Source: a virus
Taxonomy: Duplodnaviria; Heunggongvirae; Uroviricota; Caudoviricetes
Length of the DNA stretch: 15,204 nucleotides
Direction: 5' to 3' (one strand)
IMG/VR virus record: IMGVR_UViG_2913177423_000006
Span: 1 to 15,204 of that record
The number at the start of each line of letters is the position of its first letter. Within the stretch, counting starts at the first letter, position 1. The translations under genes and the position numbers were made by a program. Below are positions 1 through 14,198 of the stretch, in pieces. The notes beneath the pieces were generated by a model. That model saw nothing but the letters and a program-made list of their open reading frames with translations. It was not told the origin of the DNA and did no database searches.

Positions 1-555
1 ATGCTTATTGGCTATGTACGCGTATCAACAAATGACCAGAACACCGATCTACAACGTAATGCGTTGAACTGTGTAGGATGTGAACTGATTTTTGAAGACA
101 AGATAAGCGGTACGAAGTCCGAAAGGCCCGGACTGAAAAAACTGCTCAGGACATTATCGGCAGGTGACACACTGGTTGTCTGGAAGCTGGATCGGCTGGG
201 GCGTAGTATGCGGCATCTGGTCATTCTAGTTGAGGAGTTGCGCGAACGTGGCGTTAATTTTCGCAGCCTGACGGATGCTATTGATACCAGCACACCGATG
301 GGGCGTTTTTTCTTTCATGTGATGGGTGCCTTGGCTGAAATGGAACGAGAACTGATTGTTGAACGAACAAAAGCTGGACTGGAAGCTGCTCGCGCGCAGG
401 GACGAATTGGTGGACGTCGTCCCAAACTTACACCAGAACAATGGGCGCAGGCCGGGCGATTAATTGCATCAGGCGTTCCTCGCCAAAAGGTGGCGATCAT
501 CTATGATGTTGGTATATCGACACTGTATAAGAAGTTTCCGGTTGGAGATAAATGA
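1..555 (+). CDS. Serine-recombinase DNA invertase (Gin/Pin/Cin/Hin family), complete 184 aa
   Basis: Starts exactly at window position 1 with MLIGYVRVSTNDQNTDLQ (catalytic Ser in VRVST), conserved WKLDRLGRS and GRFFFHVMGALAEMERE resolvase-domain motifs, and a C-terminal HTH (GGRRPKLT...STLYKK). Near-colinear with Gin/Pin-type invertases as I recall them. Confidence 0.9.
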   Translation: MLIGYVRVSTNDQNTDLQRNALNCVGCELIFEDKISGTKSERPGLKKLLRTLSAGDTLVVWKLDRLGRSMRHLVILVEELRERGVNFRSLTDAIDTSTPMGRFFFHVMGALAEMERELIVERTKAGLEAARAQGRIGGRRPKLTPEQWAQAGRLIASGVPRQKVAIIYDVGISTLYKKFPVGDK

Positions 556-775: not shown

Positions 776-3586
776 TTATTTTTTTAGAGATTGCATTCGT
801 TCATTGAATATGTCCAATGTGTCTTGAAATTCAACAAAGCCTCTATCCTTTATAAGGATTTTAATTAAGTTAGGAAAATCACTTTCTACACCAGCTGTAA
901 TGAAATCTAACTCGCCTAATTTATTCGGGATGTTTTCAGAAACAAATTTGTTAATAACCTCAAGAAATTGATCAGGCATGGCACATCCGCTTGCGACTAA
1001 ATGCAAACATTCCATAATATCGCTTACTGTTGCCAGTGGTAGGTTTAAAATATTACTGTTAATAAACTTGTCTATAATGTCAACGACCTCAGGAGAGCCA
1101 ATCCTTTTGATGTTCAATAATAAACTCTTAGTGATGGATCTTTTCCACTTATCATCAAATAATTGTATTTTTGTTAACGCTAATGTTAATAGTTCAGTGT
1201 TTTTGTATTCGTAATTATGATTCTCTGATAATATGTAAATGTTTCGTAAGATATTGGAGTTAATTACATGCTGGTCATAACCATTTAACTCTCCTGTATT
1301 GATTTTTATAAGTATTACATCCAGGATTTTTAACATATCATCATGGGATTTTTGATACAAAAACTCATTCACAGCTAGAAGATTATGTATGTTTTCATAA
1401 ATATTTATGTTATTAGTTCTGCCTTCTAACAAAGGAAGCAAACCATTTATTATTTTCTTTAACTGGTTTGAACTCCACGGAACACATCCTAATATAATCA
1501 ATAAATTATTGGTCCATCGATCTATTGAAGTGGTATGAATAAAATTTTTATTTTTCAACCTAATCAGGTTGCATATGTTTTCGAGAGAGTTGAGTAAATA
1601 TTTCTTAATATGGTGAACTTCTCTTTTGTCAAGTTTGCTGGTGCTGATTATTATTTTGTCTTTTATTACCTTACTTAAAAATTTTTTGAGTTTTTCTGTC
1701 TCGCAGTATTTTATTAACATAAATAGATCGATTCTATTAACATAGAATATCTCTTCGCATAGATAGTGTTCGAGGCTACTAAGAATATTAAATTCGAAAA
1801 ATTGTTTAACCTCTTTATATTCTTCAATTAAAATTTCGTTGCCTAAAATGAAATACACATAAGGGTACAGTTTCGCTCTTGTTTTAAATTCATCATTGGA
1901 AAATGCTATTCCACCACTCTTTCTTATTTGTGAGTACCCTAAATTCTTCTTCGATTCAACGTCAAATCGATAGTAAGCTTTGTATATTTCATTAAATTCA
2001 AGCATCTTTACTAATTCTTGTAGCTCACTTTGCACCCCCCGTGGAAAATCAATTATTTTACTTTTAAACTCAAATGGAGTATGGCTTTCCATTATTGATT
2101 TACAATCTTCATCAATGTCCTTACCGTTACAGTGTAAATCCGACTTCAACATCCTGTAAGCATAATCAAAATTAGACATGTGAATGGTGGCGAGAATATA
2201 GTTTCTCTCATTAAGATGAAGCTTTACTTTCGAAATAAGAATATCGAGAAGTTTGCCATATTCCTTGTTAATAAGAAGTATTTCAGCATTATCCTTTGAA
2301 TAAGCGAAAGAAATCTTATTGTATAGCTCAGACTCTAATTCTGAAGAACTAATCACCTCATACAGTTTCGAGTCATAACTAACTGTATTTATAAATGCCT
2401 TTTCCAAAATAGATGAGAATGTCTTTTTTAAGTGAGTATTTTTACTCAAAATGTCATTAAGGTATATGCTATTTATTTTCCTGCTATACTCGTCATAATC
2501 AGTCGTCAAAATATTATTGTGGGAGGTTAGTTTAACCCCAGACTTATCATAATCAATGGTACTATTAGTTAATTTTTTACTGATCTGCTCAGGGAGCAAT
2601 ACTTTGTATTGTGTTAATGCTTTTAGTTTGCTATCAACATATTTATTTATTTTTTTTGTTACAATACATTGAATATCATTCTTCAATTTATTTTTATCAA
2701 AATCAGACATTCTCAGGTCATCTTCTATTTTTTTTACCTTTGACTCAGTATAGATCAGGGTCCTCTTTATAAACTCATCTTGGTTTTTAACAAGCTTGAA
2801 ATCACTGAAAAATTTTGAATAAAGATCATGATAGCTAATGTCAGTATTCATCGGTGTCAACAAGGATATCCCATGATTTCTTAAGTAAAGAGCCTGGGCT
2901 GCATCATGATTTTTCTGGAGCAAATATTTTCTTGGTGTTGCTTTTGATATAGTTGTAACCCATGAAACAATCTGTTTTAAATCATAATCACTATAAGAGT
3001 ATCCTAAAAACACAACAGTGTTTGTTGAGAATATTCCTTTTATAAAATTTTCGATAAGTGGAAAATTTTGGCTGTACTGTAAGTAATCATCCTCTTTAAA
3101 AACAAAATTATTCTGTCGAAAATCCCCATGCATCTTTATAATTTTCTTGTCCAAATGACTTTGTGCCAGGTCCACGTCAGAACTAACTAAATCATAAGCC
3201 AATCCTATGTCTTGTGCAGTTTTTTCAAGCAAACTATCCCAGTTGGTTGTAATTATATAGTGGGGGTTTAATTCAAATAGCATCTTATGAAAAAGACTTG
3301 GTTTCAAATCTCTAATTATTGATTTGACTTTTTTAACATAAGAGTTTTGTCCGTATTGAAGAAAGTAAAGTTGGGCTATTTTTAAATAATCATTTTCTTC
3401 AGACAATCCTAAGTCGTCTTTTAGCTCATTTATTAACTCCCTCCAGGTTGGTATTTTTATTAATTCCGTTTCGCTGAATTTAGAAAAACCAGCACCAATA
3501 AAAAGAACTAACTTATTATCTTGACTGGCATTCAATATTTCGTTCAAGTCATATTCAGAAAAAGAAAGTGGATTTAAATTTATCAT
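776..3586 (-). CDS. SIR2-domain protein, 936 aa: N-terminal SIR2-type NAD+-hydrolase domain plus ~650-aa helical C-terminal region; candidate single-gene antiphage defence protein (DSR1/DSR2-like)
   Basis: Long uninterrupted ORF. N-terminus carries SIR2-type motifs: glycine-rich LVLFIGAGFS (res 26-35), IITTNWDSLLE (Asn115), IIKMHGDF (His153), VVFLGYSYSDYDL. Asn-His spacing of 38 residues. The gene is visibly far more AT-rich than its neighbours (by eye, roughly 25-30% GC against about 50%). No partner gene (TIR, HerA, Argonaute) nearby. Confidence 0.8.
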   Translation of the reverse strand: MINLNPLSFSEYDLNEILNASQDNKLVLFIGAGFSKFSETELIKIPTWRELINELKDDLGLSEENDYLKIAQLYFLQYGQNSYVKKVKSIIRDLKPSLFHKMLFELNPHYIITTNWDSLLEKTAQDIGLAYDLVSSDVDLAQSHLDKKIIKMHGDFRQNNFVFKEDDYLQYSQNFPLIENFIKGIFSTNTVVFLGYSYSDYDLKQIVSWVTTISKATPRKYLLQKNHDAAQALYLRNHGISLLTPMNTDISYHDLYSKFFSDFKLVKNQDEFIKRTLIYTESKVKKIEDDLRMSDFDKNKLKNDIQCIVTKKINKYVDSKLKALTQYKVLLPEQISKKLTNSTIDYDKSGVKLTSHNNILTTDYDEYSRKINSIYLNDILSKNTHLKKTFSSILEKAFINTVSYDSKLYEVISSSELESELYNKISFAYSKDNAEILLINKEYGKLLDILISKVKLHLNERNYILATIHMSNFDYAYRMLKSDLHCNGKDIDEDCKSIMESHTPFEFKSKIIDFPRGVQSELQELVKMLEFNEIYKAYYRFDVESKKNLGYSQIRKSGGIAFSNDEFKTRAKLYPYVYFILGNEILIEEYKEVKQFFEFNILSSLEHYLCEEIFYVNRIDLFMLIKYCETEKLKKFLSKVIKDKIIISTSKLDKREVHHIKKYLLNSLENICNLIRLKNKNFIHTTSIDRWTNNLLIILGCVPWSSNQLKKIINGLLPLLEGRTNNINIYENIHNLLAVNEFLYQKSHDDMLKILDVILIKINTGELNGYDQHVINSNILRNIYILSENHNYEYKNTELLTLALTKIQLFDDKWKRSITKSLLLNIKRIGSPEVVDIIDKFINSNILNLPLATVSDIMECLHLVASGCAMPDQFLEVINKFVSENIPNKLGELDFITAGVESDFPNLIKILIKDRGFVEFQDTLDIFNERMQSLKK

Positions 3587-4026
3587 TTTATAACTCTATG
3601 CATGTCTTAAAATTCATTGCTTCCATCAATATTAGCATAATTAAGTATTTCAAATCATAACGATGCTTAATTTATCATTATAATCCATTAACTTGTTCCA
3701 AGTACACCGTCTGCTAGTAATTTCTCCATTAACTGACTTATAAAGTGGGGGACTTCCGTCTCTCTCTCATAACAGACATTCACTACAGTTATGGCAGAAA
3801 GGTATGCAAGCCGGGTGTGGGAAAGTATGAAAGAAAAGAAGACTGCTGCGCCGTTTGTCGTCACATTTATCTTCATTGGCTATGCAAGTCGTAATACAAG
3901 GTGGGACAAAACTGAGACACATAAGGCCTCGCAATGGCTTGCAAGGCTTTACATGTTTTGATGTGGCGGGACGTGTGAGCGCAGTGTTGATGGGGTAATG
4001 CTTTGAATTAGAATCGGATTCTTATA

Positions 4027-4072
4027 ATTCGTAATGCGAAGGTCGTAGGTTCGACTCCTATTATCGGCACCA
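4027..4072 (+). tRNA. 3'-terminal fragment (~46 nt) of tRNA-Thr(CGU), thrW-like; att-type junction, not a complete tRNA gene
   Basis: attcgtaatgcgaaggtcgtaggttcgactcctattatcggcacca gives an anticodon loop ttCGTaa, T-arm gtagg-ttcgact-cctat, 3' acceptor strand tatcggc, discriminator a and CCA. The required 5' acceptor strand gccgata and the D-arm are absent upstream, and the 5' half of the anticodon stem does not pair (tataa vs tgcga). Confidence 0.75.
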
Positions 4073-4237
4073 TTTCAACGTCTTTTCCCGTCTATTAAAA
4101 TCCAACAAACCCGCATATACTCTAGCTTTGAGCGCCCCAGATAGTGTTTTAACGTCTATCAATATCTCCTAAAATCCACGTCTTTTGGGGGGATATTCGG
4201 GGGTATATGCTGTGTGGGCTACTGGAGATACCCCCAA

Positions 4238-5428
4238 ATGAAACTAAATGCCCGTCAGGTCGATACGGCCAAACCGAAAGAAAAACCCTATAAACTGGCC
4301 GATGGTGGTGGGCTTTATCTGCTTGTTAATCCCAATGGTTCCCGGTACTGGCGTTTAAAGTACCGGGTAGCCGGAAAAGAAAAGCTGTTGGCGCTGGGGG
4401 TATATCCCGATGTAACCCTGGCTGATGCCAGGGCGAAACGAGATGAGGCCAAAAGGGGTATGGCTGGGGGGATCGACCCGAACGAAGCGAAGCGGGAAGA
4501 AAAATTGAACCGCGAAGCGCAAATCAAAAACACCTTCGAAGAAATCGCCAGAGAGTGGCATACAGAACGGCAGAAGAAATGGTCTGAGGGGTACGCCTCG
4601 GACATTCTGGAAGCATTCAGTAAAGACATATTCCCTTGGATTGGAAAACGCCCCATCACGGAAATAAAGCCCCTTGATTTGCTGAATACGCTTAAACGCA
4701 TCGAGAATAGGGGAGCGACTGAAAAGGCCCGTAAGGTTCGCCAGTGGTGCGGGGAGGTCTGGAAGTATGCGATCGTTACCGCCCGCGCAGAATATAACCC
4801 CGCCCCTGATCTATCTGTGGCTATGGAAGGACACGAAGGGGAGCACTTCCCCCATCTGGAAGCCGAAGAGTTACCCGAATTTTTCCAGACGCTGGCGACG
4901 GCAAAAAGTAACGTTCAGGTTATTTTGGGGCTGCGTCTGCTTATTCTTGTGGGGTTACGTCCGGTTGAATTACGCGCGGCCCCGTGGTCAGAGATTGATT
5001 TTGATAATGCCTTGTGGGAGATCCCCAAAGAGCGAATGAAGAAAAGACGTCCGCACGTTGTCCCGCTTTCTCGCCAGGCTATGGTTATTCTCGGGCAATT
5101 AAAAGAGTTGTCGGGCCGCAATCCTTTCATTTTTCCGGGCCGGAACGACCCGCGAAAGCCAATGAGTGAAGGAGCAATTAATCAGCTAATAAAGCGACTC
5201 GGGTATAAGGGCAAAGCTTGCGGGCATGGTTTCCGACATACCATGAGCACAATTTTGTATGAGAAAGGGTATAACACCGAATGGATCGAAACCCAGCTTG
5301 CACATGTTGATAAAAATACCATCCGTGGCACATATAATCATGCCCGCTATCTGGATGGACGCCGGGAAATGCTTCAATGGTATGCCGACTATATGGAATC
5401 GCTGGCGAGTGGCAGGGTAAAAGATTAG
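4238..5428 (+). CDS. int: Tyrosine integrase, P4/CP4-57 IntA type (396 aa)
   Basis: N-terminus MKLNARQVDTAKPKEKPYKLADGGGLYLLVNPNGSRYWRLKYR is the classic P4-type integrase arm-binding start; C-terminal catalytic region has HGFRHT and a conserved Tyr in RGTYNHARY. GGAGA Shine-Dalgarno 10 nt upstream of the ATG at 4238; the ORF-track start at 4214 is a GTG extension. Sits immediately downstream of the tRNA fragment. Confidence 0.9.
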   Translation: MKLNARQVDTAKPKEKPYKLADGGGLYLLVNPNGSRYWRLKYRVAGKEKLLALGVYPDVTLADARAKRDEAKRGMAGGIDPNEAKREEKLNREAQIKNTFEEIAREWHTERQKKWSEGYASDILEAFSKDIFPWIGKRPITEIKPLDLLNTLKRIENRGATEKARKVRQWCGEVWKYAIVTARAEYNPAPDLSVAMEGHEGEHFPHLEAEELPEFFQTLATAKSNVQVILGLRLLILVGLRPVELRAAPWSEIDFDNALWEIPKERMKKRRPHVVPLSRQAMVILGQLKELSGRNPFIFPGRNDPRKPMSEGAINQLIKRLGYKGKACGHGFRHTMSTILYEKGYNTEWIETQLAHVDKNTIRGTYNHARYLDGRREMLQWYADYMESLASGRVKD

Positions 5429-5468
5429 AGAAGGTCTAAGACGGGAATACCGCTAAATTAGATGTTAG

Positions 5469-5505
5469 GCGTGGACACTCAGCATCCACGCTTAAACTTT
5501 TTATT
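5469..5505 (+). terminator. Rho-independent terminator downstream of int
   Basis: 7-bp stem gcgtgga (5469-5475) / tccacgc (5485-5491), 9-nt loop, followed by ttaaactttttatt. Confidence 0.6.
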
Positions 5506-5998
5506 ATCATTTTCAATGAATTATGATTTTGGAAATTTTATAAAAAACACCAAGATTACTAATCTATTGATTAATATGAAATATTTCTTTTTTTGATTAT
5601 TAATTGTGCTCTTGATTGTTGTTTTTATGGTGTTAATTTATAAAAATCTTATTTATAGGAATTAACATTATATAGTTGGCACTTTTTGCTAAAATCTGTT
5701 TTTATTGTGTTTTATTTTTATTTCATTTTTGTTGTTGTTTGTTTGATTTTTAGTGTCTTTATATCTGGCTAATTGATTTCACTCAAACCATAAATCCTTT
5801 CAGAGGCTTCTAGAGTCTTCCTGAGGCTTAAATTGACTTAACTAAAAGTCAAGCCCCACATCCCACATACATCTTTTTGACATGCACTTATGGCGTGAAT
5901 AACAATGACTTCATCCAATCTACAGGCATCCTATAAAGTCAATGTCTGTATATAGAAAGATATTACATAACGTTTGAATGTTAATAGCGGGTGTGAAT

Positions 5999-6217
5999 AT
6001 GAGAAATGATGCAATGCAGCTTTTAAACCAAGGAAAAAGATTGATCCGCCTGCCTGAAGTTATGATGCTTACGGGGCGGTGTCGCGCCAGTATTTATAAA
6101 GATATCAATGCAAATGTCTTTCCAAAGCCGATTAAAACCGGCCCGCGTTCTGTCGCATGGGTTGAGGGTGAGATCAGCGACTGGATCGACAACAAAATCA
6201 AAGAGCGCAAAGTGTAA
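5999..6217 (+). CDS. alpA: AlpA/Vis-family phage transcriptional regulator (excision activator-like), ~72 aa
   Basis: RLIRLPEVMMLTGRCRASIYKDINANVFPKPIKTGPRSVAWVEGEISDWI matches the AlpA-family pattern (RLP.V...TG..R.TIY.....FP.P...G.R.V.W...E...W), in the usual position after a P4-type int. Start chosen at the ATG at 5999 (MRNDAMQ...); the ORF-track start at 5978 lacks an SD. Confidence 0.75.
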   Translation: MRNDAMQLLNQGKRLIRLPEVMMLTGRCRASIYKDINANVFPKPIKTGPRSVAWVEGEISDWIDNKIKERKV

Positions 6218-6416
6218 ATCTGATTTTATTCAGAGATGAATATGATTTATTTGAATGCTAAGGATTTTGTGTATTCTTTTTGTTGTAAATACTCGTAGCA
6301 TGGGGAGTTGGCAGTATTTATTCAGTATTAGGTTAAGTGGTTACAAAATACCAGGCAATGCCGGTTTATGCAGTGTTTAATATATTTGTTGCTGGCGAAA
6401 ATTTACGGAAAATTAA

Positions 6417-7289
6417 ATGAACATTACTGATATTATCAGCCATCGCGTATATCGTGATGCGGATCTTGCTGTCATTAATAACACGGCATTTATTCAGCCT
6501 TATGACGGTTGTCACCGTGGTTTGTATGAAATGCGCGTTATTGAACTTTATCGCCTGAATAAAATGATGCACCTTACCCACGAATATAAATCTATTTCCG
6601 GGGAAAGCGTAGGCATTCCGGCGACTAAAGAGGAACTGTTTACACTGGTTAATAAAGGGCATGAACTTTGCCAGTCTGAACGGGAAAAGCTGGCGGCACT
6701 TGAAGCAGAATTGCAGCGTCTGCCAAGCCCGGCTGTAATTCCTGCGCCGCAGACGATTAAAGAAGCACAGCAGGCCCGTAAATCACTAGAAGATGAAAGA
6801 TTCAGACTGCATCACGCAGCAATTAAAAATCAAGTCAAGGCACAGCAGGAAGAGTTATCCATCAGACAAAACATTCTGGCATTGCTCGCGCCGGTTATTG
6901 ATGTGTTGTTGGCCGTGGAAGATGTGGAACTGCTCGATCTGCGCCGTTCCCTGCCTAAGTCATCCCTCGATGCTAAGGCATTCAAAAAGGCGATTTCTGA
7001 AATTGAGTGTGCTGACCTTGCCTGGCAGAAAATGGATAAACTGGAGATTGCCCTTAACAAGGTGGTGAACAACTGCACATATCGCCCGGAAGGAAGCATT
7101 AATCCCCGTTTTGTTAACCCTCTTAATGAAGATAAGCGGGAACGCGCCGAAATATCACGCGATTATTACAGCTCTGAAATGGCCTTTATTCATACGGTGA
7201 TGAGTGCAGATGAATATTTAAATTATATGTTGCCGATCCGTCACCAGCAGCGCGCGCAACGACTCACATTAGAAAGAAATATCAACTAA
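6417..7289 (+). CDS. Hypothetical 290-aa protein with a central coiled-coil-like region; possible scaffold-like partner of the downstream capsid-family gene
   Basis: Clean ORF whose stop lies 10 bp before the next gene, which has an AAGGAAG SD. Middle segment (ELCQSEREKLAALEAELQRL ... QVKAQQEELSIRQNILALL) is heptad-like. No family recognised by eye; functional call is inference from adjacency and size only. Confidence 0.6.
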   Translation: MNITDIISHRVYRDADLAVINNTAFIQPYDGCHRGLYEMRVIELYRLNKMMHLTHEYKSISGESVGIPATKEELFTLVNKGHELCQSEREKLAALEAELQRLPSPAVIPAPQTIKEAQQARKSLEDERFRLHHAAIKNQVKAQQEELSIRQNILALLAPVIDVLLAVEDVELLDLRRSLPKSSLDAKAFKKAISEIECADLAWQKMDKLEIALNKVVNNCTYRPEGSINPRFVNPLNEDKRERAEISRDYYSSEMAFIHTVMSADEYLNYMLPIRHQQRAQRLTLERNIN

Positions 7290-7298
7290 GGAAGAATT

Positions 7299-8306
7299 AT
7301 GTCTTATGTAACACCAGATTATTTAACGCAGTATCACGAAAACCTGATTAAGTCTTTTAATATTAAATATAAAAACGAAGATACGGGGTATTTCACCATA
7401 TCACAGCCGGAAAAAGCATCTCCGGATGCATGGGGATGTTCCACGCTTGATGTTAAAGGCTCGTCCTGGCTGATTGATAATATTTCATTACTGGACATTA
7501 CCGGTGCGGATGGCACGACGATCACCATCGGTGATGGTTCCCTTTATACAGGCCGTGCAAAGGAAGGTCGCTTTCATAAGAAACTAAAAACCAACGGAAC
7601 ACCTTTTTTATTATCAGAAACGGATTCCTGCGCCTCATTGACTTATGAAGAAATGGCGGTAATGGCAAACGCGAAAAATTTCAGTAATGAAATGATCATT
7701 TTTTTCAAGAAGGCCGTGGTGCGGGATATGCTCCGTATTGGATTTAACGGCAAGATGATTGCCGAAAATACCAACCCGGAACAATATAAAAACGGCGAAG
7801 ATATCAATATTGGCTGGCACTCGCTGGCAAAAACATTCAATAACGGTTCACAAATTATTTCTGATGCTTTCGCACTGGGGAAAGGGGGTGATTTTGCCGA
7901 TGTTCACGATCTGGCTGATTGCCTCATCACGTCAAAAATCCCCGAAGGTCAGCGCGAAGATCCGGGCCTTGTGGTGATGGTTGGCGCGCAGCTTGCCGCC
8001 CGCGAACGCCTGAAACTGTTCAACATGGCCGATCAACCACTGACGCTGACGGCGGGGGATATGTTGACAAGCAGTGTCGCCGGTCGTTTTGCCTTTATCC
8101 CGCCGTTTATGCCGGGTAAGCGCCTGGCTGTTACGACGCTGAAAAATTTGCAGATCCTGACGCTGAAACACAGCCAACACTACCGCGCGGAGGATATCCC
8201 GCAACGAGGTGTTTATGAGCATGGCTATTTACGTGAAGAAGGTTACGCGCTGGGGGATGGCTATCTTTACGCGGCCAGCGATGAGAACGCCGTGACGCTG
8301 GTTTAA
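7299..8306 (+). CDS. P2 GpN-like major capsid-family protein homologue (335 aa)
   Basis: Colinear motif matches to my recollection of P2 GpN: RIGFNG vs AGFNG; NIGWHSL vs AVGWLQK; LGKGGDFADVHDLAD vs VGKGGDYASLDALVMD; EDPGLVVMVGAQLAA vs EDPDLVVIVGRQLLA; TTLKNLQI vs ITKLENLSI. AAGGAAG SD 5 nt upstream. Recalled-sequence comparison, not a search, so moderate confidence. Confidence 0.55.
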   Translation: MSYVTPDYLTQYHENLIKSFNIKYKNEDTGYFTISQPEKASPDAWGCSTLDVKGSSWLIDNISLLDITGADGTTITIGDGSLYTGRAKEGRFHKKLKTNGTPFLLSETDSCASLTYEEMAVMANAKNFSNEMIIFFKKAVVRDMLRIGFNGKMIAENTNPEQYKNGEDINIGWHSLAKTFNNGSQIISDAFALGKGGDFADVHDLADCLITSKIPEGQREDPGLVVMVGAQLAARERLKLFNMADQPLTLTAGDMLTSSVAGRFAFIPPFMPGKRLAVTTLKNLQILTLKHSQHYRAEDIPQRGVYEHGYLREEGYALGDGYLYAASDENAVTLV

Positions 8307-9294: not shown

Positions 9295-9712
9295 TCTGCT
9301 TAATTCACCGTTGCCAGTGTCTATGGATCTCTTTCAGGCTGGCGAGATGTGCGGGCATTTTGTCGCGCGGTTAACGGATGAAAGTTGTGTTGACGAGACT
9401 GAACGCGTCGCACTTTGCGGACGTCTGGCTTTTGCCCTGCGTTCTCTTTCATCTCTTTGTGATACAGACTATCCATCGCATATCCAGGCGCAATTAACCG
9501 CGACTGCTATTCCTGCTCCCTGCGTACCTGATGAGTGGATCGACGCGACGATCATGACGGGCTATTGCACCGCCTTAAATGATGCGCTGCTTAGTCGCTC
9601 CCTTCGTATGGACGTTGAAACACAATTACGCTGGCTTTTGCATGACATGATTAATTTACTTGTCAGATATCTGAAACAGCCTTGTATTAAGGCGGGAGTA
9701 GATCATGTCTGA
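9287..9712 (+). CDS. Hypothetical Cys-rich protein (141 aa)
   Basis: Start overlaps the previous stop and its own stop overlaps the next start (ATGTCTGA at 9705-9712). No family recognised. Confidence 0.6.
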   Translation: MHNLLNSPLPVSMDLFQAGEMCGHFVARLTDESCVDETERVALCGRLAFALRSLSSLCDTDYPSHIQAQLTATAIPAPCVPDEWIDATIMTGYCTALNDALLSRSLRMDVETQLRWLLHDMINLLVRYLKQPCIKAGVDHV

Positions 9713-10469: not shown

Positions 10470-10532
10470 TTTTTTGTATTCCGCGCCGCCCGCTGCGGCG
10501 CATTGTCTTACCCATTAATAAAGGTCATACCG

Positions 10533-13265
10533 ATGCAAGGTAAAAAAGTTTCACAGACAGCAGGACGCGCAGCGGGCCAGTGGGAAAATATTCTTGAACA
10601 CCTGGGGATTACTGTTCCTGCGGGTGGTCTTCATGGCCCCTGCCCGATCTGCGGCGGTAAAGATCGTTTTCGCTTTGATAATAAAAAAGGGCGTGGAACC
10701 TGGTTCTGCAACCAGTGCGGCCACGGTGACGGGCTGGATCTGGTCAAACTGGCGCTTTCGCTGGACACCGGGCCAGCCGCTGATCGAGTTGCTGAATTAC
10801 TTCCGGCCCTTCCTCCGCCTGCGGTCATGCAGCCTGCCAGAAAAGAAGCCAGTGACGAAGGTCGCCCACATGACTACTGGCAACGCCTCTTTGCCCGTAC
10901 TCAGCCGGGGGAAAGCCCTTACCTTACGGCGCGGGGGCTGACAGGTTTTGAACTGCCGCTGACCGTTCAGGAGATGAAAACCGCTGGCGGTGTTTTTCCG
11001 GCTGGTTCGCTTTTATTACCGATCACGGACACCGAAGGACGGATGACCGGTGCACAGCTTATCGGCCCGGACAAGGTAAAAGGCTTATGTGCTGGCACCA
11101 GGAAAAAAGGGCGTTTTATCTCTGTCGGGCCGTTCCCGGTGAAAACGCCCGCGCGGATCATTATCTCGGAAGGCTTTGCCACTGCGTTAAGCGCATCCCT
11201 GCTTTCAGAGGGCTGGAGTATTGCGGCGCTGGATAAAGGCAACCTGAAAGACGTTGCGGAGCAAATCCGCCAGAAATGGCCGGACGTGCAGATCGTTATT
11301 GCCGGTGATAATGACTTTTCTGACGGTAAACCCAATCAGGGGAAAGAGTCTGCGATCAAAGCTGCACTGGCCGTTAAGGGATGGATGACCATTCCTCCCG
11401 GACGGATCAAAGTTGACTGGGATGATTACCGCCGTGAATTTGGCCTCCAGCGCGCCCGTGACGCATTCGCGGAAGAACTGCTTAACCCGGCAGACACCGA
11501 AACGCGTTTACCGCATGGTTTCCGCCTGACGAAGGATTATCTTTGGTTTGATCGCCCGCTCAGTGACGGTAGCGAAAGCGGCCAGACTCGCCAGGTGAAG
11601 ATATGTAGCCCGCTCAAAGTGACGGCCATCACCAGCGACGGCGAAGGCGGTAAATTCGGGCGTCTGCTTGAGTGGGAAGACTCCAGCGGATTACGGCATG
11701 AATGGGCGATGCCAATGACAGTGCTTGCCGGAAGCGGTCAGGAGCTGCGGGAGGTTCTGCTTGATAACGGAATGCACTTTATCAGCGTGAACGGCGCGGC
11801 GCGTAGCTATCTGATGGAATACATTTCTAACTGTCGCCCGGTTCGCCGCGTCACCTGCGTTGAAAAAACAGGCTGGTTTAGCGGTGCATATGTTCTCCAG
11901 GATGAGGTGATCGGCAGCGATGCCGGATCGGTGATCCTTCAGTCTGCTATGTCGTCTAAAAATGACTTCCGGGTGAGCGGAACGGCGGCGGAATGGGCGC
12001 AACACGTCGGGCGCTATTGCGCCGGTAATTCCCGCCTGGTGTTCTGCGTCAGTCTGGCGCTGGCCGCGCCGTTGCTGAATCTTATCGGCGTGGGCGGCGG
12101 CGGTTATCACCTTAAGGGCGAATCCACGGACGGCAAGACAACCACAATGAAGGTGGCGGCGTCAGTCTGCGGCGGGCCTGATTTCTGGAAAACGTGGCGG
12201 GCAACCGGAAACGCGCTGGAAGGTATTGCGCTACGCCGTAATGATGCCGCCCTGATGCTGGATGAAATCAGCGAAGTTGACGGCAGAGAGGCCAGCCGGA
12301 TCGCCTATATGCTGGGGAACGGGCAGGGCAAAGCAAGGGGGCGCGTTGATGGCAGCGTCCGCGATCCGGTGACCTGGACATTGCTTTACCTGTCCACCGG
12401 GGAAATCTCTATTGCGGAACATGCCGCCGAAGCCGGAGAAAAGCGAACCGGCGCGGGTGTCGGTGTGCGTATGGTGCAAATACTCAGCGATACCGGAAAA
12501 CATGGCGCTTTCGAAAATCTCCACGGCATGGAAGGCGGTAAAGCGTTTGCGGAATACCTTGAACAGTCCTGTAAACAGTATCACGGTGCGCCGTTCCGCG
12601 AATGGTTGCGCTGGCTGGCGGCAAACCTGACGGAAACTGCGAACCGGGCGCGGGCAATGAAAAAAGAGTATGAACGGACATTATTACCCGAAGATTCCGG
12701 CAAGCAGGTCGGGCGCATTGTGGATCGCTTTGCGCTGTTAGCCGTTGCGGGGGAACTGGCAAGCGAAGCGGGGATCACCGGCTGGCTACCCGGTGAAGCG
12801 TATAACGCTGCAAGAAGCTGTCTGGCGGCATGGCTTAACGATCGCGGACATGCGGCCAACCAGGAAGAAGCCGACGCGCTGGAGAAGGTGCGGCGCTTTA
12901 TTACGGCGAATCAGTACACACGCTTTGCTGACTGGTATGACGAGAAAAACCGCCCGTCAAATATGGTTGGTTTTCGCCGGGTGGAGAAAGGCGGGAACGG
13001 TATCGGCATGAGCAAGAAGGAGAACAGCGGCGATACTGTTAAAGACGGGGACGCCACTAAAGAGCCGGAAACCACATTTTATATCCTGCCCAGCGGATGG
13101 AAGGAGATTTGCGGGACGTCGGACAGCGTTAAAACGGCGAGACTATGCGACGAGGCTGGATGGCTTGTAAAGGATGAAGATCGCCAGCGCCTACAACGTA
13201 CAGTAAGACTACCGGAAATTGGCTTAAAGAAAGTGTATGTGTTCAGCGGCGAAGTGATCGGATAA
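10533..13265 (+). CDS. P4 alpha-type DNA primase/helicase (zinc-binding domain, Toprim primase, P-loop NTPase)
   Basis: Zinc ribbon CPICGGKDRFRFDNKKGRGTWFCNQCGHGDGLD; Toprim motifs IIISEGFATA and VIAGDNDF; Walker A GESTDGKTT and Walker B LMLDEI. Start set at ATG 10533 (MQGKK...); the ORF-track start at 10503 is a TTG. Confidence 0.9.
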   Translation: MQGKKVSQTAGRAAGQWENILEHLGITVPAGGLHGPCPICGGKDRFRFDNKKGRGTWFCNQCGHGDGLDLVKLALSLDTGPAADRVAELLPALPPPAVMQPARKEASDEGRPHDYWQRLFARTQPGESPYLTARGLTGFELPLTVQEMKTAGGVFPAGSLLLPITDTEGRMTGAQLIGPDKVKGLCAGTRKKGRFISVGPFPVKTPARIIISEGFATALSASLLSEGWSIAALDKGNLKDVAEQIRQKWPDVQIVIAGDNDFSDGKPNQGKESAIKAALAVKGWMTIPPGRIKVDWDDYRREFGLQRARDAFAEELLNPADTETRLPHGFRLTKDYLWFDRPLSDGSESGQTRQVKICSPLKVTAITSDGEGGKFGRLLEWEDSSGLRHEWAMPMTVLAGSGQELREVLLDNGMHFISVNGAARSYLMEYISNCRPVRRVTCVEKTGWFSGAYVLQDEVIGSDAGSVILQSAMSSKNDFRVSGTAAEWAQHVGRYCAGNSRLVFCVSLALAAPLLNLIGVGGGGYHLKGESTDGKTTTMKVAASVCGGPDFWKTWRATGNALEGIALRRNDAALMLDEISEVDGREASRIAYMLGNGQGKARGRVDGSVRDPVTWTLLYLSTGEISIAEHAAEAGEKRTGAGVGVRMVQILSDTGKHGAFENLHGMEGGKAFAEYLEQSCKQYHGAPFREWLRWLAANLTETANRARAMKKEYERTLLPEDSGKQVGRIVDRFALLAVAGELASEAGITGWLPGEAYNAARSCLAAWLNDRGHAANQEEADALEKVRRFITANQYTRFADWYDEKNRPSNMVGFRRVEKGGNGIGMSKKENSGDTVKDGDATKEPETTFYILPSGWKEICGTSDSVKTARLCDEAGWLVKDEDRQRLQRTVRLPEIGLKKVYVFSGEVIG

Positions 13266-13362
13266 GACCTGCTGACACCGCTATAACTAACGGTGTTGGC
13301 CAGCTTCCGGTCCTGGAAACATAGCCAGCCAGGAAGAAGTGATCGCACGTATCATATTTTTT

Positions 13363-13575
13363 AGTGGGAACAGTGGGAACATAGGGAACAGACTTGATTT
13401 ATAAAAGTTTTATTTGTTCCCAATTACTGTTCCCATATGGTAACAGGTGGTAATGTATTTTAAATCATATGGTTATGTTGATATGCAAAGCGTTGTTCCC
13501 AGTTGTAAAAGAGAGATGGGAACAGGAAAAAGGTATAAATATCAACACTGTTACCATTGTTCCCACTGTTTCCAC
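13363..13575. repeat. Iteron-like array: about 10 copies of octamer TGGGAACA / TGTTCCCA in both orientations; candidate ori/crr-type primase-binding region or integrase arm-type sites
   Basis: Read directly: direct copies at 13366, 13375, 13384 (9-bp period); inverted copies tgttccca at 13415, 13428, 13494; tgggaaca at 13517; tgttacca / tgttccca / tgtttcca at 13549, 13558, 13567 (9-bp period). Confidence 0.7.
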
Positions 13576-13649
13576 CATTTTTGACAATAACAATGTTTAA
13601 TTTCGGGGAAAATGCTTTTCCCTGGCTGGCTAACATCAAAGGTGAAGAA

Positions 13650-14198
13650 ATGAGCATCAAGAAACGTCCTGATGGAAAATGGCTGGTAGATATCCGCCCC
13701 AATGGGCGGAACGGGAAACGCGTTAGGCGTGTTTTTATGCTTAAGCGTGAGGCTGAAAGTTTCATAAGATATACAAAGTGGCGAGCAATGCAGTCTGAAC
13801 CCACAAGAACAATCAAACCAGCATTTGAATATTATACCCTTTATGAAGCGTGTGAAATCTGGTGGCGTTTAGTGGGTCATACAAGAATTAACGCAGAAAC
13901 TGAAAAGCGTCAGCTTGAAAAGACTATCAGGCAAATGGGGAATCCTTATGTTATGGAACTTAAATATACACAATTAATTCAATTTGTAATGTTACGATTA
14001 TATTCATGCAATAAATATGTTTCTATTCGGCGTGATCTTTACAGGCTGTCAGGTATGTTTCGTGATCTGATAAAAATAGGTGAATATAATTCTAACCCCA
14101 TGAAAGGGGTTGGTTCATTAATGAACGAATGTAACCGACGTTTAGCCATACACGTTAGCAATCCTTGCTGGGTTCAATGGTGGAGAGGGGTAAAATAA
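13650..14198 (+). pseudogene. Tyrosine-integrase N-terminal fragment (arm-binding plus core-binding region, 182 aa), lacking the catalytic domain; probable integrase remnant or stand-alone DNA-binding protein
   Basis: MSIKKRPDGKWLVDIRPNGRNGKRVRRVFMLKREAESFIRYTKW is the typical P2-type integrase arm-binding N-terminus. The ORF stops after ~180 aa with no R..HxxR..Y catalytic region. AGGTG SD before the ATG at 13650. Confidence 0.5.

Follow-up and report, generated by a model that had tools for sequence, protein, structure and literature searches.

An octamer iteron array 3' of a DUF927 primase-helicase gene is very probably the replication origin of an integrated P4-like phage satellite

The stretch of DNA analyzed here (15,204 bases, hereafter the window) carries an array of octamer repeats just beyond a primase-helicase gene, and we consider it very probable that this array serves an integrated P4-like phage satellite as its origin of vegetative replication, paired with the initiator gene upstream of it. 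This reading, which comes from sequence comparison, is based on the enrichment of the octamer, its conserved position and architecture relative to the gene, a concerted change of its core between lineages, the outcome of a search made with DNA alone, the AT-rich spacers between the repeats, and the precedent of the E. coli satellite EcCICFT073.

Across the whole window, TGGGAACA (or, inverted, TGTTCCCA) is matched exactly seven times, at 13365+, 13374+, 13415-, 13428-, 13494-, 13517+ and 13558-, and all seven copies fall inside the 201 bp from 13365 to 13565. Only 0.56 copies are expected per window; in 200 dinucleotide-preserving shuffles the maximum was 4, and none reached seven. Allowing one mismatch added four sites to the array (13383+ AGGGAACA; 13438+ and 13549-, both TGGTAACA; 13567- TGGAAACA), for a total of 11 between 13363 and 13575, the limits drawn in an initial annotation of this DNA that had counted about ten octamers. 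Another one-mismatch match at 13314+ lies just outside these limits, and the remaining six are isolated matches dispersed over the window, no more than chance would give. Only alignment with four relatives (L006, L008, L009 and L013) reveals a twelfth copy, the decayed TGGTAATG at 13448-13455. The mixed orientation described in the initial annotation was not only evident but ordered, running +++ -- + to the left of the central AT-rich region and - + --- to its right, such that the outer triplets are convergent. The 9-bp spacing reported there held for the two outer triplets (13365/13374/13383 and 13549/13558/13567) but not for the inner sites, which are irregularly spaced. The right outer triplet was also recovered among the inverted repeats (I2, I4). 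The features of the region are as follows.

10533 to 13265, plus strand: primase-helicase, the proposed initiator, with a Zn-ribbon and Toprim primase domain, a DUF927 helicase and a Rep-like C-terminal domain
13342 to 13364, plus strand: conserved leader ATCGCACGTATCATATTTTTTAG, preceding the first iteron triplet
13365 to 13390, plus strand: left outer iteron triplet at a 9-bp step, TGGGAACA, TGGGAACA, AGGGAACA; the triplet is kept in relatives
13392 to 13414: AT-rich spacer of 23 bp, 13% GC, containing a conserved GATTTAT
13415 to 13455: inner left iterons, TGTTCCCA at 13415- and 13428-, TGGTAACA at 13438+, and the decayed TGGTAATG at 13448-13455
13456 to 13493: central AT-rich region, a candidate DNA-unwinding region; the 48-bp stretch 13446-13493 has 31% GC
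13494 to 13524: inner right iterons, TGTTCCCA at 13494- and TGGGAACA at 13517+
13549 to 13574, minus strand: right outer iteron triplet at a 9-bp step, inverted relative to the left one, TGTTACCA, TGTTCCCA, TGTTTCCA; kept in relatives
13650 to 14198, plus strand: truncated second tyrosine-recombinase gene, 182 aa, with arm-binding and Int_N domains (Int_N only in Pfam)

The array lies just downstream of the primase gene, as had been stated initially, with the first iteron at 13365 being 99 nt past the primase-helicase stop at 13265. RefSeq places no CDS between the primase-helicase and integrase-like genes in the near-identical locus L001, and the 65-aa hypothetical CDS that overlaps the right part of the array on the minus strand in the L167 copy is regarded as spurious. 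The leader of the window aligns with ATCGCGCG(A/T)GT.TTAT.TTTT in L006, L008, L009 and L013, and in L002, L003 and L004 the leader motif directly abuts the stop codon. About 75-90 nt are inserted between the primase stop and the leader in the window and in L006, whereas in other clades the leader abuts the stop, and the L006 insert bears a clear terminator hairpin, GGGGCGTAATGCCCCTTTTTTT. Two further repeats were observed around the array: an 18-nt inverted repeat (13322-13339 and 13615-13632; 12 nt perfect, TAGCCAGCCAGG and CCTGGCTGGCTA) brackets all of it and has its left arm partly kept in L006, and a 10-bp direct repeat, GAAGTGATCG (13251-13260 and 13336-13345), makes the last primase codons recur just before the origin leader.

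The proposed initiator is 910-920 aa long, depending on the start (the 920-aa ORF begins at 10503). The initial annotation had likened it to P4 alpha, and this was borne out for the primase domain, in which the first 322 residues are 37% identical to that of alpha, but not for the helicase and C-terminal domain, which are of the DUF927/SaPI-Rep type: Pfam places DUF927 (5e-88) in the part occupied by D5_N, DUF5906 and Pox_D5 in alpha. Only two relatives of solved structure were recognized by sequence, the helicase Cch of SCCmec (5dgk, 1e-13) and the Rep of a SaPI (8tch, 3e-12). The last part of the C-terminal domain is a beta-alpha-alpha-beta-beta module (about aa 855-920 of the 920-aa ORF), and in a predicted model, resting on a shallow alignment of the 18 mostly fragmentary proteins that the homologue search returned, the fold of the C-terminal domain resembles the SaPI Rep counterpart; the P4 origin-binding domain was absent from the top 60 structural matches. 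Together, these comparisons show what appears to be a hybrid, in which a P4-type primase domain is joined to a SaPI-type Rep helicase and served by a single Rep-style origin. In a set of 5,426 complete E. coli genomes, a DUF927 gene that is 60-80% identical centrally was found in about 900.

To collect relatives by way of the protein, we scanned one genome per species, which gave 80 loci, among them 54 Enterobacterales loci with enough downstream sequence. In fifty of these 54, a clade-specific core recurs 9-18 times in the 450 bp that follow the stop, supporting the initial proposal of a replication origin or cis-replication region. The commonest pattern, +++-++--+---, comprises twelve sites over about 189 bp and, as calculated from the site positions, is dyad-symmetric to within one base with six sites per half; in one example, sites 27, 36, 45, 76-, 100 and 109 mirror 126-, 136-, 160, 191-, 200- and 209-. 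The iteron core varies by clade (TGGTAACA, GGGTAACA, GGTGTAACA, GGTGGAACA, GTGGTACA, TGGATACA), and three E. coli representatives have a like array with another core in the 200 bp past the stop codon.

E. coli SE15, within 200 bp after the stop: core GGTAACA
P4-like element carrying sid/psu/delta, within 200 bp after the stop: core GGTGGAACA
PICI-like element, within 200 bp after the stop: core GTGGTACA/GTGGGACA

The next gene differs in each of the three (ogr/delta, sid(-psu) and ComEC), indicating that the array is conserved with the primase gene and not with its downstream neighbor. The same held across the loci, where the downstream gene and its orientation vary and the array stays at the primase 3' end. 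Three of the four exceptions among the Enterobacterales loci (Apirhabdus, Klebsiella spallanzanii and Scandinavium; 71-75% identity) do have an array, with 10-13 copies of TGGGAACA, located 1.1 kb downstream of the primase gene and past a full-length 335-aa tyrosine recombinase, and immediate adjacency of array and primase gene is therefore not obligatory.

The closest relative, from Intestinirhabdus (78% identical; L006), has its array placed as in the window, with TGGTAACA at every copy. When five arrays were aligned, the leader and spacer landmarks were homologous and the iteron positions were kept, while all of the L006 copies carried the same G-to-T change. A single-base difference shared by every copy between homologous flanks is a concerted change, the behavior predicted for sites that a single protein recognizes. 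Iteron type and overall protein similarity can diverge, in that the 78%-identical protein uses TGGTAACA whereas proteins only 24-43% identical use TGGGAACA; likewise, users of GGTGTAACA and GGTGGAACA differ at few C-terminal residues only, whereas the users of TGGGAACA are very divergent. In the window itself the array mixes core types (two TGGTAACA, one TGGAAACA, one AGGGAACA and one decayed copy) and is the least uniform of its clade, being exact at 7 of about 12 positions compared with 10-12 in relatives. Given that it is the most degenerate array of the clade, the window copy may be a weakened origin. At three Rahnella loci (L010-L012), whose protein is 80% identical to that of the window upstream of the C-terminal domain, a palindromic GTACTACATGTA-type iteron, not an asymmetric octamer, was found 35-250 nt past the stop.

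We also searched IMG/VR viral contigs with the iteron dimer TGGGAACAGTGGGAACA only, a query that did not presuppose any link of motif to gene, and obtained 80 loci. A primase-helicase homologue of 24-69% identity is encoded at 29 of them, and in 25 of these 29 the densest TGGGAACA cluster lies 3' of the homologue's stop, within 110 bp of it in 20. At the remaining four, either the locus is truncated at its end or the array is on a different piece of the contig. A recurrent group of viral loci (L091, L100, L107, L118, L119, L126 and L133, together with L140, L146, L149, L153, L155 and L158) showed TGGGAACA dimers in a divergent arrangement, with an inverted pair first and a direct pair 124 bp later. 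Most sample ids of this group lie in the 33000294xx-298xx range, and in the two loci where it is visible, the helicase directly upstream is only 26% identical.

Other readings of the repeats were weighed against that of an origin. The array could be a crr-like cis enhancer, bound by the initiator while replication starts at another locus of the element. P4 requires two cis elements for replication, and alpha binds crr; in P4 the iteron block that directly follows alpha on its 3' side is crr rather than ori1, the window array has the same position beside an alpha-like primase domain, and a single array could be one of two elements. However, the second octamer cluster that the initial annotation had proposed to look for, which would correspond to P4 ori1, was found neither in the window nor in the complete L001 element at zero or one mismatch (the 32.5-kb L001 locus, a 99.6%-identical E. 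coli copy, has one exact octamer outside the array). Moreover, the array lacks the pair of 120-bp direct repeats that defines crr, and the helicase and C-terminal domain are of the Rep type, in which the origin of the element is a single 3' array (PMC9371898, PMC6092414). We consider an enhancer role improbable. Quite improbable, too, is an operator or copy-control site only, acting in transcription regulation or handcuffing and having no origin function. Plasmid iterons commonly double as control sites, the array does lie upstream of the next gene, and one weak promoter-like match occurs on the minus strand (13379-13351), but promoter-like matches are at chance (1 found, 1.1 expected), the neighboring gene and its orientation vary while the array is fixed to the primase 3' end, and a dyad-symmetric layout of two halves with AT-rich spacers is that of an origin. 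Promoter and terminator matches were at chance level, and no plus-strand terminator was found between the primase gene and the array.

The initial annotation had offered as its own alternative that the repeats are arm-type sites for the integrase-like protein encoded downstream, and accessory sites for this tyrosine recombinase, for instance in integration or multimer resolution, would be a related case. A recombinase homologue always adjoins the array in the TGGGAACA clade of Enterobacterales, on either side, and the 13650-14198 protein retains an N-terminal region of the arm-binding type. This proposal nevertheless fell to the comparative data: more than 45 loci have like arrays and no recombinase homologue, as is also true of the close relative L006, the TGGGAACA arrays of viral contigs lie directly 3' of the helicase gene, and the recombinase gene of the window is a truncated remnant that lacks the catalytic domain. 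Sites of this kind should co-occur with the recombinase and have a crossover core at the element junction, but the gene is often absent and the array is internal to the element, the main integrase gene being about 8 kb away and the right end about 2 kb away in L001. Arm-type sites are therefore a very improbable explanation. No more probable is that the region works through single-strand folding, be it of a structured RNA or of an initiation signal in cruciform or ssDNA form, with the repeats merely its stems. The predicted fold is strong (-42.8 kcal/mol, z = -6.8 against shuffles), and the G-to-T change of L006, present on both arms, mimics a compensatory change. Stems, however, require complementarity and not identity, whereas all 11-13 copies share one sequence and change together even across different stems, and the spacers are not complementary; the best Rfam match scored 25 bits against a gathering score of 249, with no family at threshold. 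The strong fold is an automatic by-product of the inverted iterons. A P4-type packaging site was also considered and rejected, as the P4 cos site is absent from the window, and no similar DNA was found among phage GenBank records.

For the origin reading, we propose a mechanism in which DNA binding, melting, hexamer stoichiometry and origin firing are modeled on the precedents of SaPI, PICI and P4. After induction and excision, the primase-helicase would recognize the TGGGAACA octamers through its winged-helix-like C-terminal domain. The convergent outer triplets, together with the inner sites, would make up two half-origins, roughly mirror images with about six sites apiece, which would place two helicase hexamers so that they flank the AT-rich center. 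By analogy with SaPI and PICI origins, the central AT-rich region is a candidate unwinding site (PMC9371898, PMC6092414), at which the duplex would melt without DnaA and the helicases would load themselves; opening without DnaA is proposed because DnaA boxes and IHF sites were at chance level, with none inside the array. The fused Toprim primase domain would then lay the first primers, leading to bidirectional replication. As a tentative extension, which we think rather unlikely to hold, the array may be a fixed double-hexamer template of two times six octamers in which switches of the core define specificity groups and the window is in transition between them. If this were true, each subunit of two head-to-head helicase hexamers would have one octamer, and concerted single-position switches, such as the G to T that separates the window from its 78%-identical relative, would mark mutually incompatible replication-specificity groups that let several satellites share one cell. 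The window, with its mixed TGGGAACA and TGGTAACA copies, would then be caught between two specificities.

The genes around the array are, in order, those for the integrase, AlpA, a 290-aa protein and a P2-family major capsid protein; then those for an Icd-like protein, three small proteins, a derepression (epsilon-like) protein and the primase-helicase, followed by the array; and after it the 182-aa integrase-like ORF, an Ogr/Delta zinc-finger gene on the opposite strand and a Phd/YoeB pair. The recombinase gene at 13650-14198 is a neighbor of the origin, not a part of it. Its homologues, present in only a few loci, are full length in L009 (335 aa; 3403-4410) and in the E. coli PapRG-04-4 locus L167 (321 aa; 14951-15916), and the gene is truncated to 182 aa in the window and in L001. 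Within the TGGGAACA clade, this second recombinase gene follows the array in E. coli (primase-array-recombinase) and precedes it in Klebsiella spallanzanii, Apirhabdus and Scandinavium (primase-recombinase-array); multimer resolution beside the origin is one possibility for its role. Regulatory genes of the P4 kind (AlpA, Icd-like, derepression protein and Ogr/Delta) are present in the element, which has neither sid nor psu; in their place stands the P2-family major capsid gene, preceded by the 290-aa protein (window 6417-8306; L002 1-370). Such a gene content suggests that this P4-like satellite supplies capsid protein of its own. To the left of the integrase are a Pin-type serine invertase (window 1-555) and, on the minus strand, the gene for a 936-aa SIR2-domain protein (776-3586), likely a defense gene. 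No tRNA gene was found in the window, and the near-identical L001 element abuts tRNA-Thr. Upstream of sid in L003, the motif GCCAGCCA occurs within two TGT-N12-ACA dyads, which we take to resemble the Ogr/Delta-type sites of P2/P4.

An iteron origin 3' of its initiator is the usual design for such elements, making the present finding solid but ordinary. It locates an origin for common, little-studied enterobacterial satellites in which a DUF927 primase-helicase replaces P4 alpha, and in the literature searched we found no published account of this octamer as an iteron or of the origin of a DUF927 satellite. As a candidate self-contained replicon, the segment 10533-13600 could serve in vectors or in engineered P4-like particles, and the natural iteron variants, together with the closely related C-terminal domains, provide a data set on how initiators read DNA. 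The practical value is modest, and the understanding of how such origins work is unchanged.

An iteron array 3' of the initiator gene is a design that has been established experimentally in SaPI, in an E. coli PICI and in P4. In SaPIs, the C-terminal winged helix of Rep recognizes 6-12 iterons immediately downstream of rep, split by an AT-rich region and with at least two in opposite directions on each side (PMC9371898; PMC7581432); for SaPIbov1 and SaPI1, we rely on the origin of Ubeda et al. (2007) as those two papers summarize it. The window array likewise lies immediately 3' of the initiator gene and has 11 sites (12 with the decayed copy), with at least two opposed on each side, and opposed iteron sets around AT-rich DNA (13% GC at 13392-13414 and 31% at 13446-13493, compared with 56% in the primase gene). 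The initiator also conforms, as a predicted self-loading DUF927-family helicase (matches to 8tch and 5dgk) with a C-terminal winged-helix domain of similar modeled fold. Unlike the SaPI penta- or hexanucleotides (5-6 nt), the window iterons are octamers or nonamers (unit 8 nt) at a 9-bp step; the primase is a fused Toprim/Zn-ribbon domain of the P4-alpha type rather than the AEP primase of SaPIs, and the element has a Gram-negative host and regulatory genes resembling those of P4.

In EcCICFT073, a pri-rep-ori segment maintains a plasmid in E. coli, a function abolished by deletion of rep or ori (PMC6092414; Fillol-Salom et al., 2018). We found that the corresponding region (L166 13996-14285, E. 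coli CFT073) contains TGTCTACC/GGTAGACA octamers in 9-bp steps and in both orientations. This E. coli satellite thus resembles the window in having an octamer array directly 3' of the initiator, a 9-bp step and an AT-rich segment, but its initiator is of the D5_N/DUF5906/Pox_D5 type without a Toprim primase, and its iteron core, TGTCTACC, is unrelated to that of the window. Cch of SCCmec, a helicase of the DUF927 family, is the PDB entry that matches the window protein best by sequence, and Cch2 binds repeats just downstream of its own gene via its C-terminal domain; however, Cch and Cch2 have no fused primase, and only three 5-nt direct repeats have been reported at their putative origin, compared with the 11 octamers of the window, with replication in vivo not shown (PMC7581432).

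With P4, the window shares the homologous primase domain (37% identity over 322 aa), P4-like neighboring genes, an iteron block immediately 3' of the primase-helicase gene and a related octamer (GGTGAACA in P4, TGGGAACA in the window and GGTGGAACA in the sid/psu-carrying relative). The P4 facts stated in the initial annotation, namely the octamer and the location of crr, agree with the annotated P4 record, in which the type-1 octamer GGTGAACA/TGTTCACC is present in crr (4291-4590) and in a separate ori (9310-9413), crr lies immediately 3' of alpha (4636-6969, minus strand), and adjacent repeats follow at 9-bp steps. The octamers themselves differ, with TGTTCCCA and TGTTCACC being the same at 6 of 8 positions. 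P4 has two cis elements several kb apart (ori1 and crr), whereas the window has one dyad-symmetric array, and without a second cluster the two-part ori plus crr arrangement of P4 is not reproduced; crr consists of two 120-bp direct repeats, whereas no long direct repeat is found in the window array. Finally, alpha combines a D5-type SF3 helicase with a Pox_D5 C-terminal domain, whereas the window protein is of the DUF927/Rep type, with only the primase domain in common. Because the helicase and C-terminal domain are of the DUF927/SaPI-Rep type, the Rep-ori system of SaPIs and PICIs is a closer model than P4 ori/crr, and the window array is a further instance of a known origin design, attached to a hybrid initiator.
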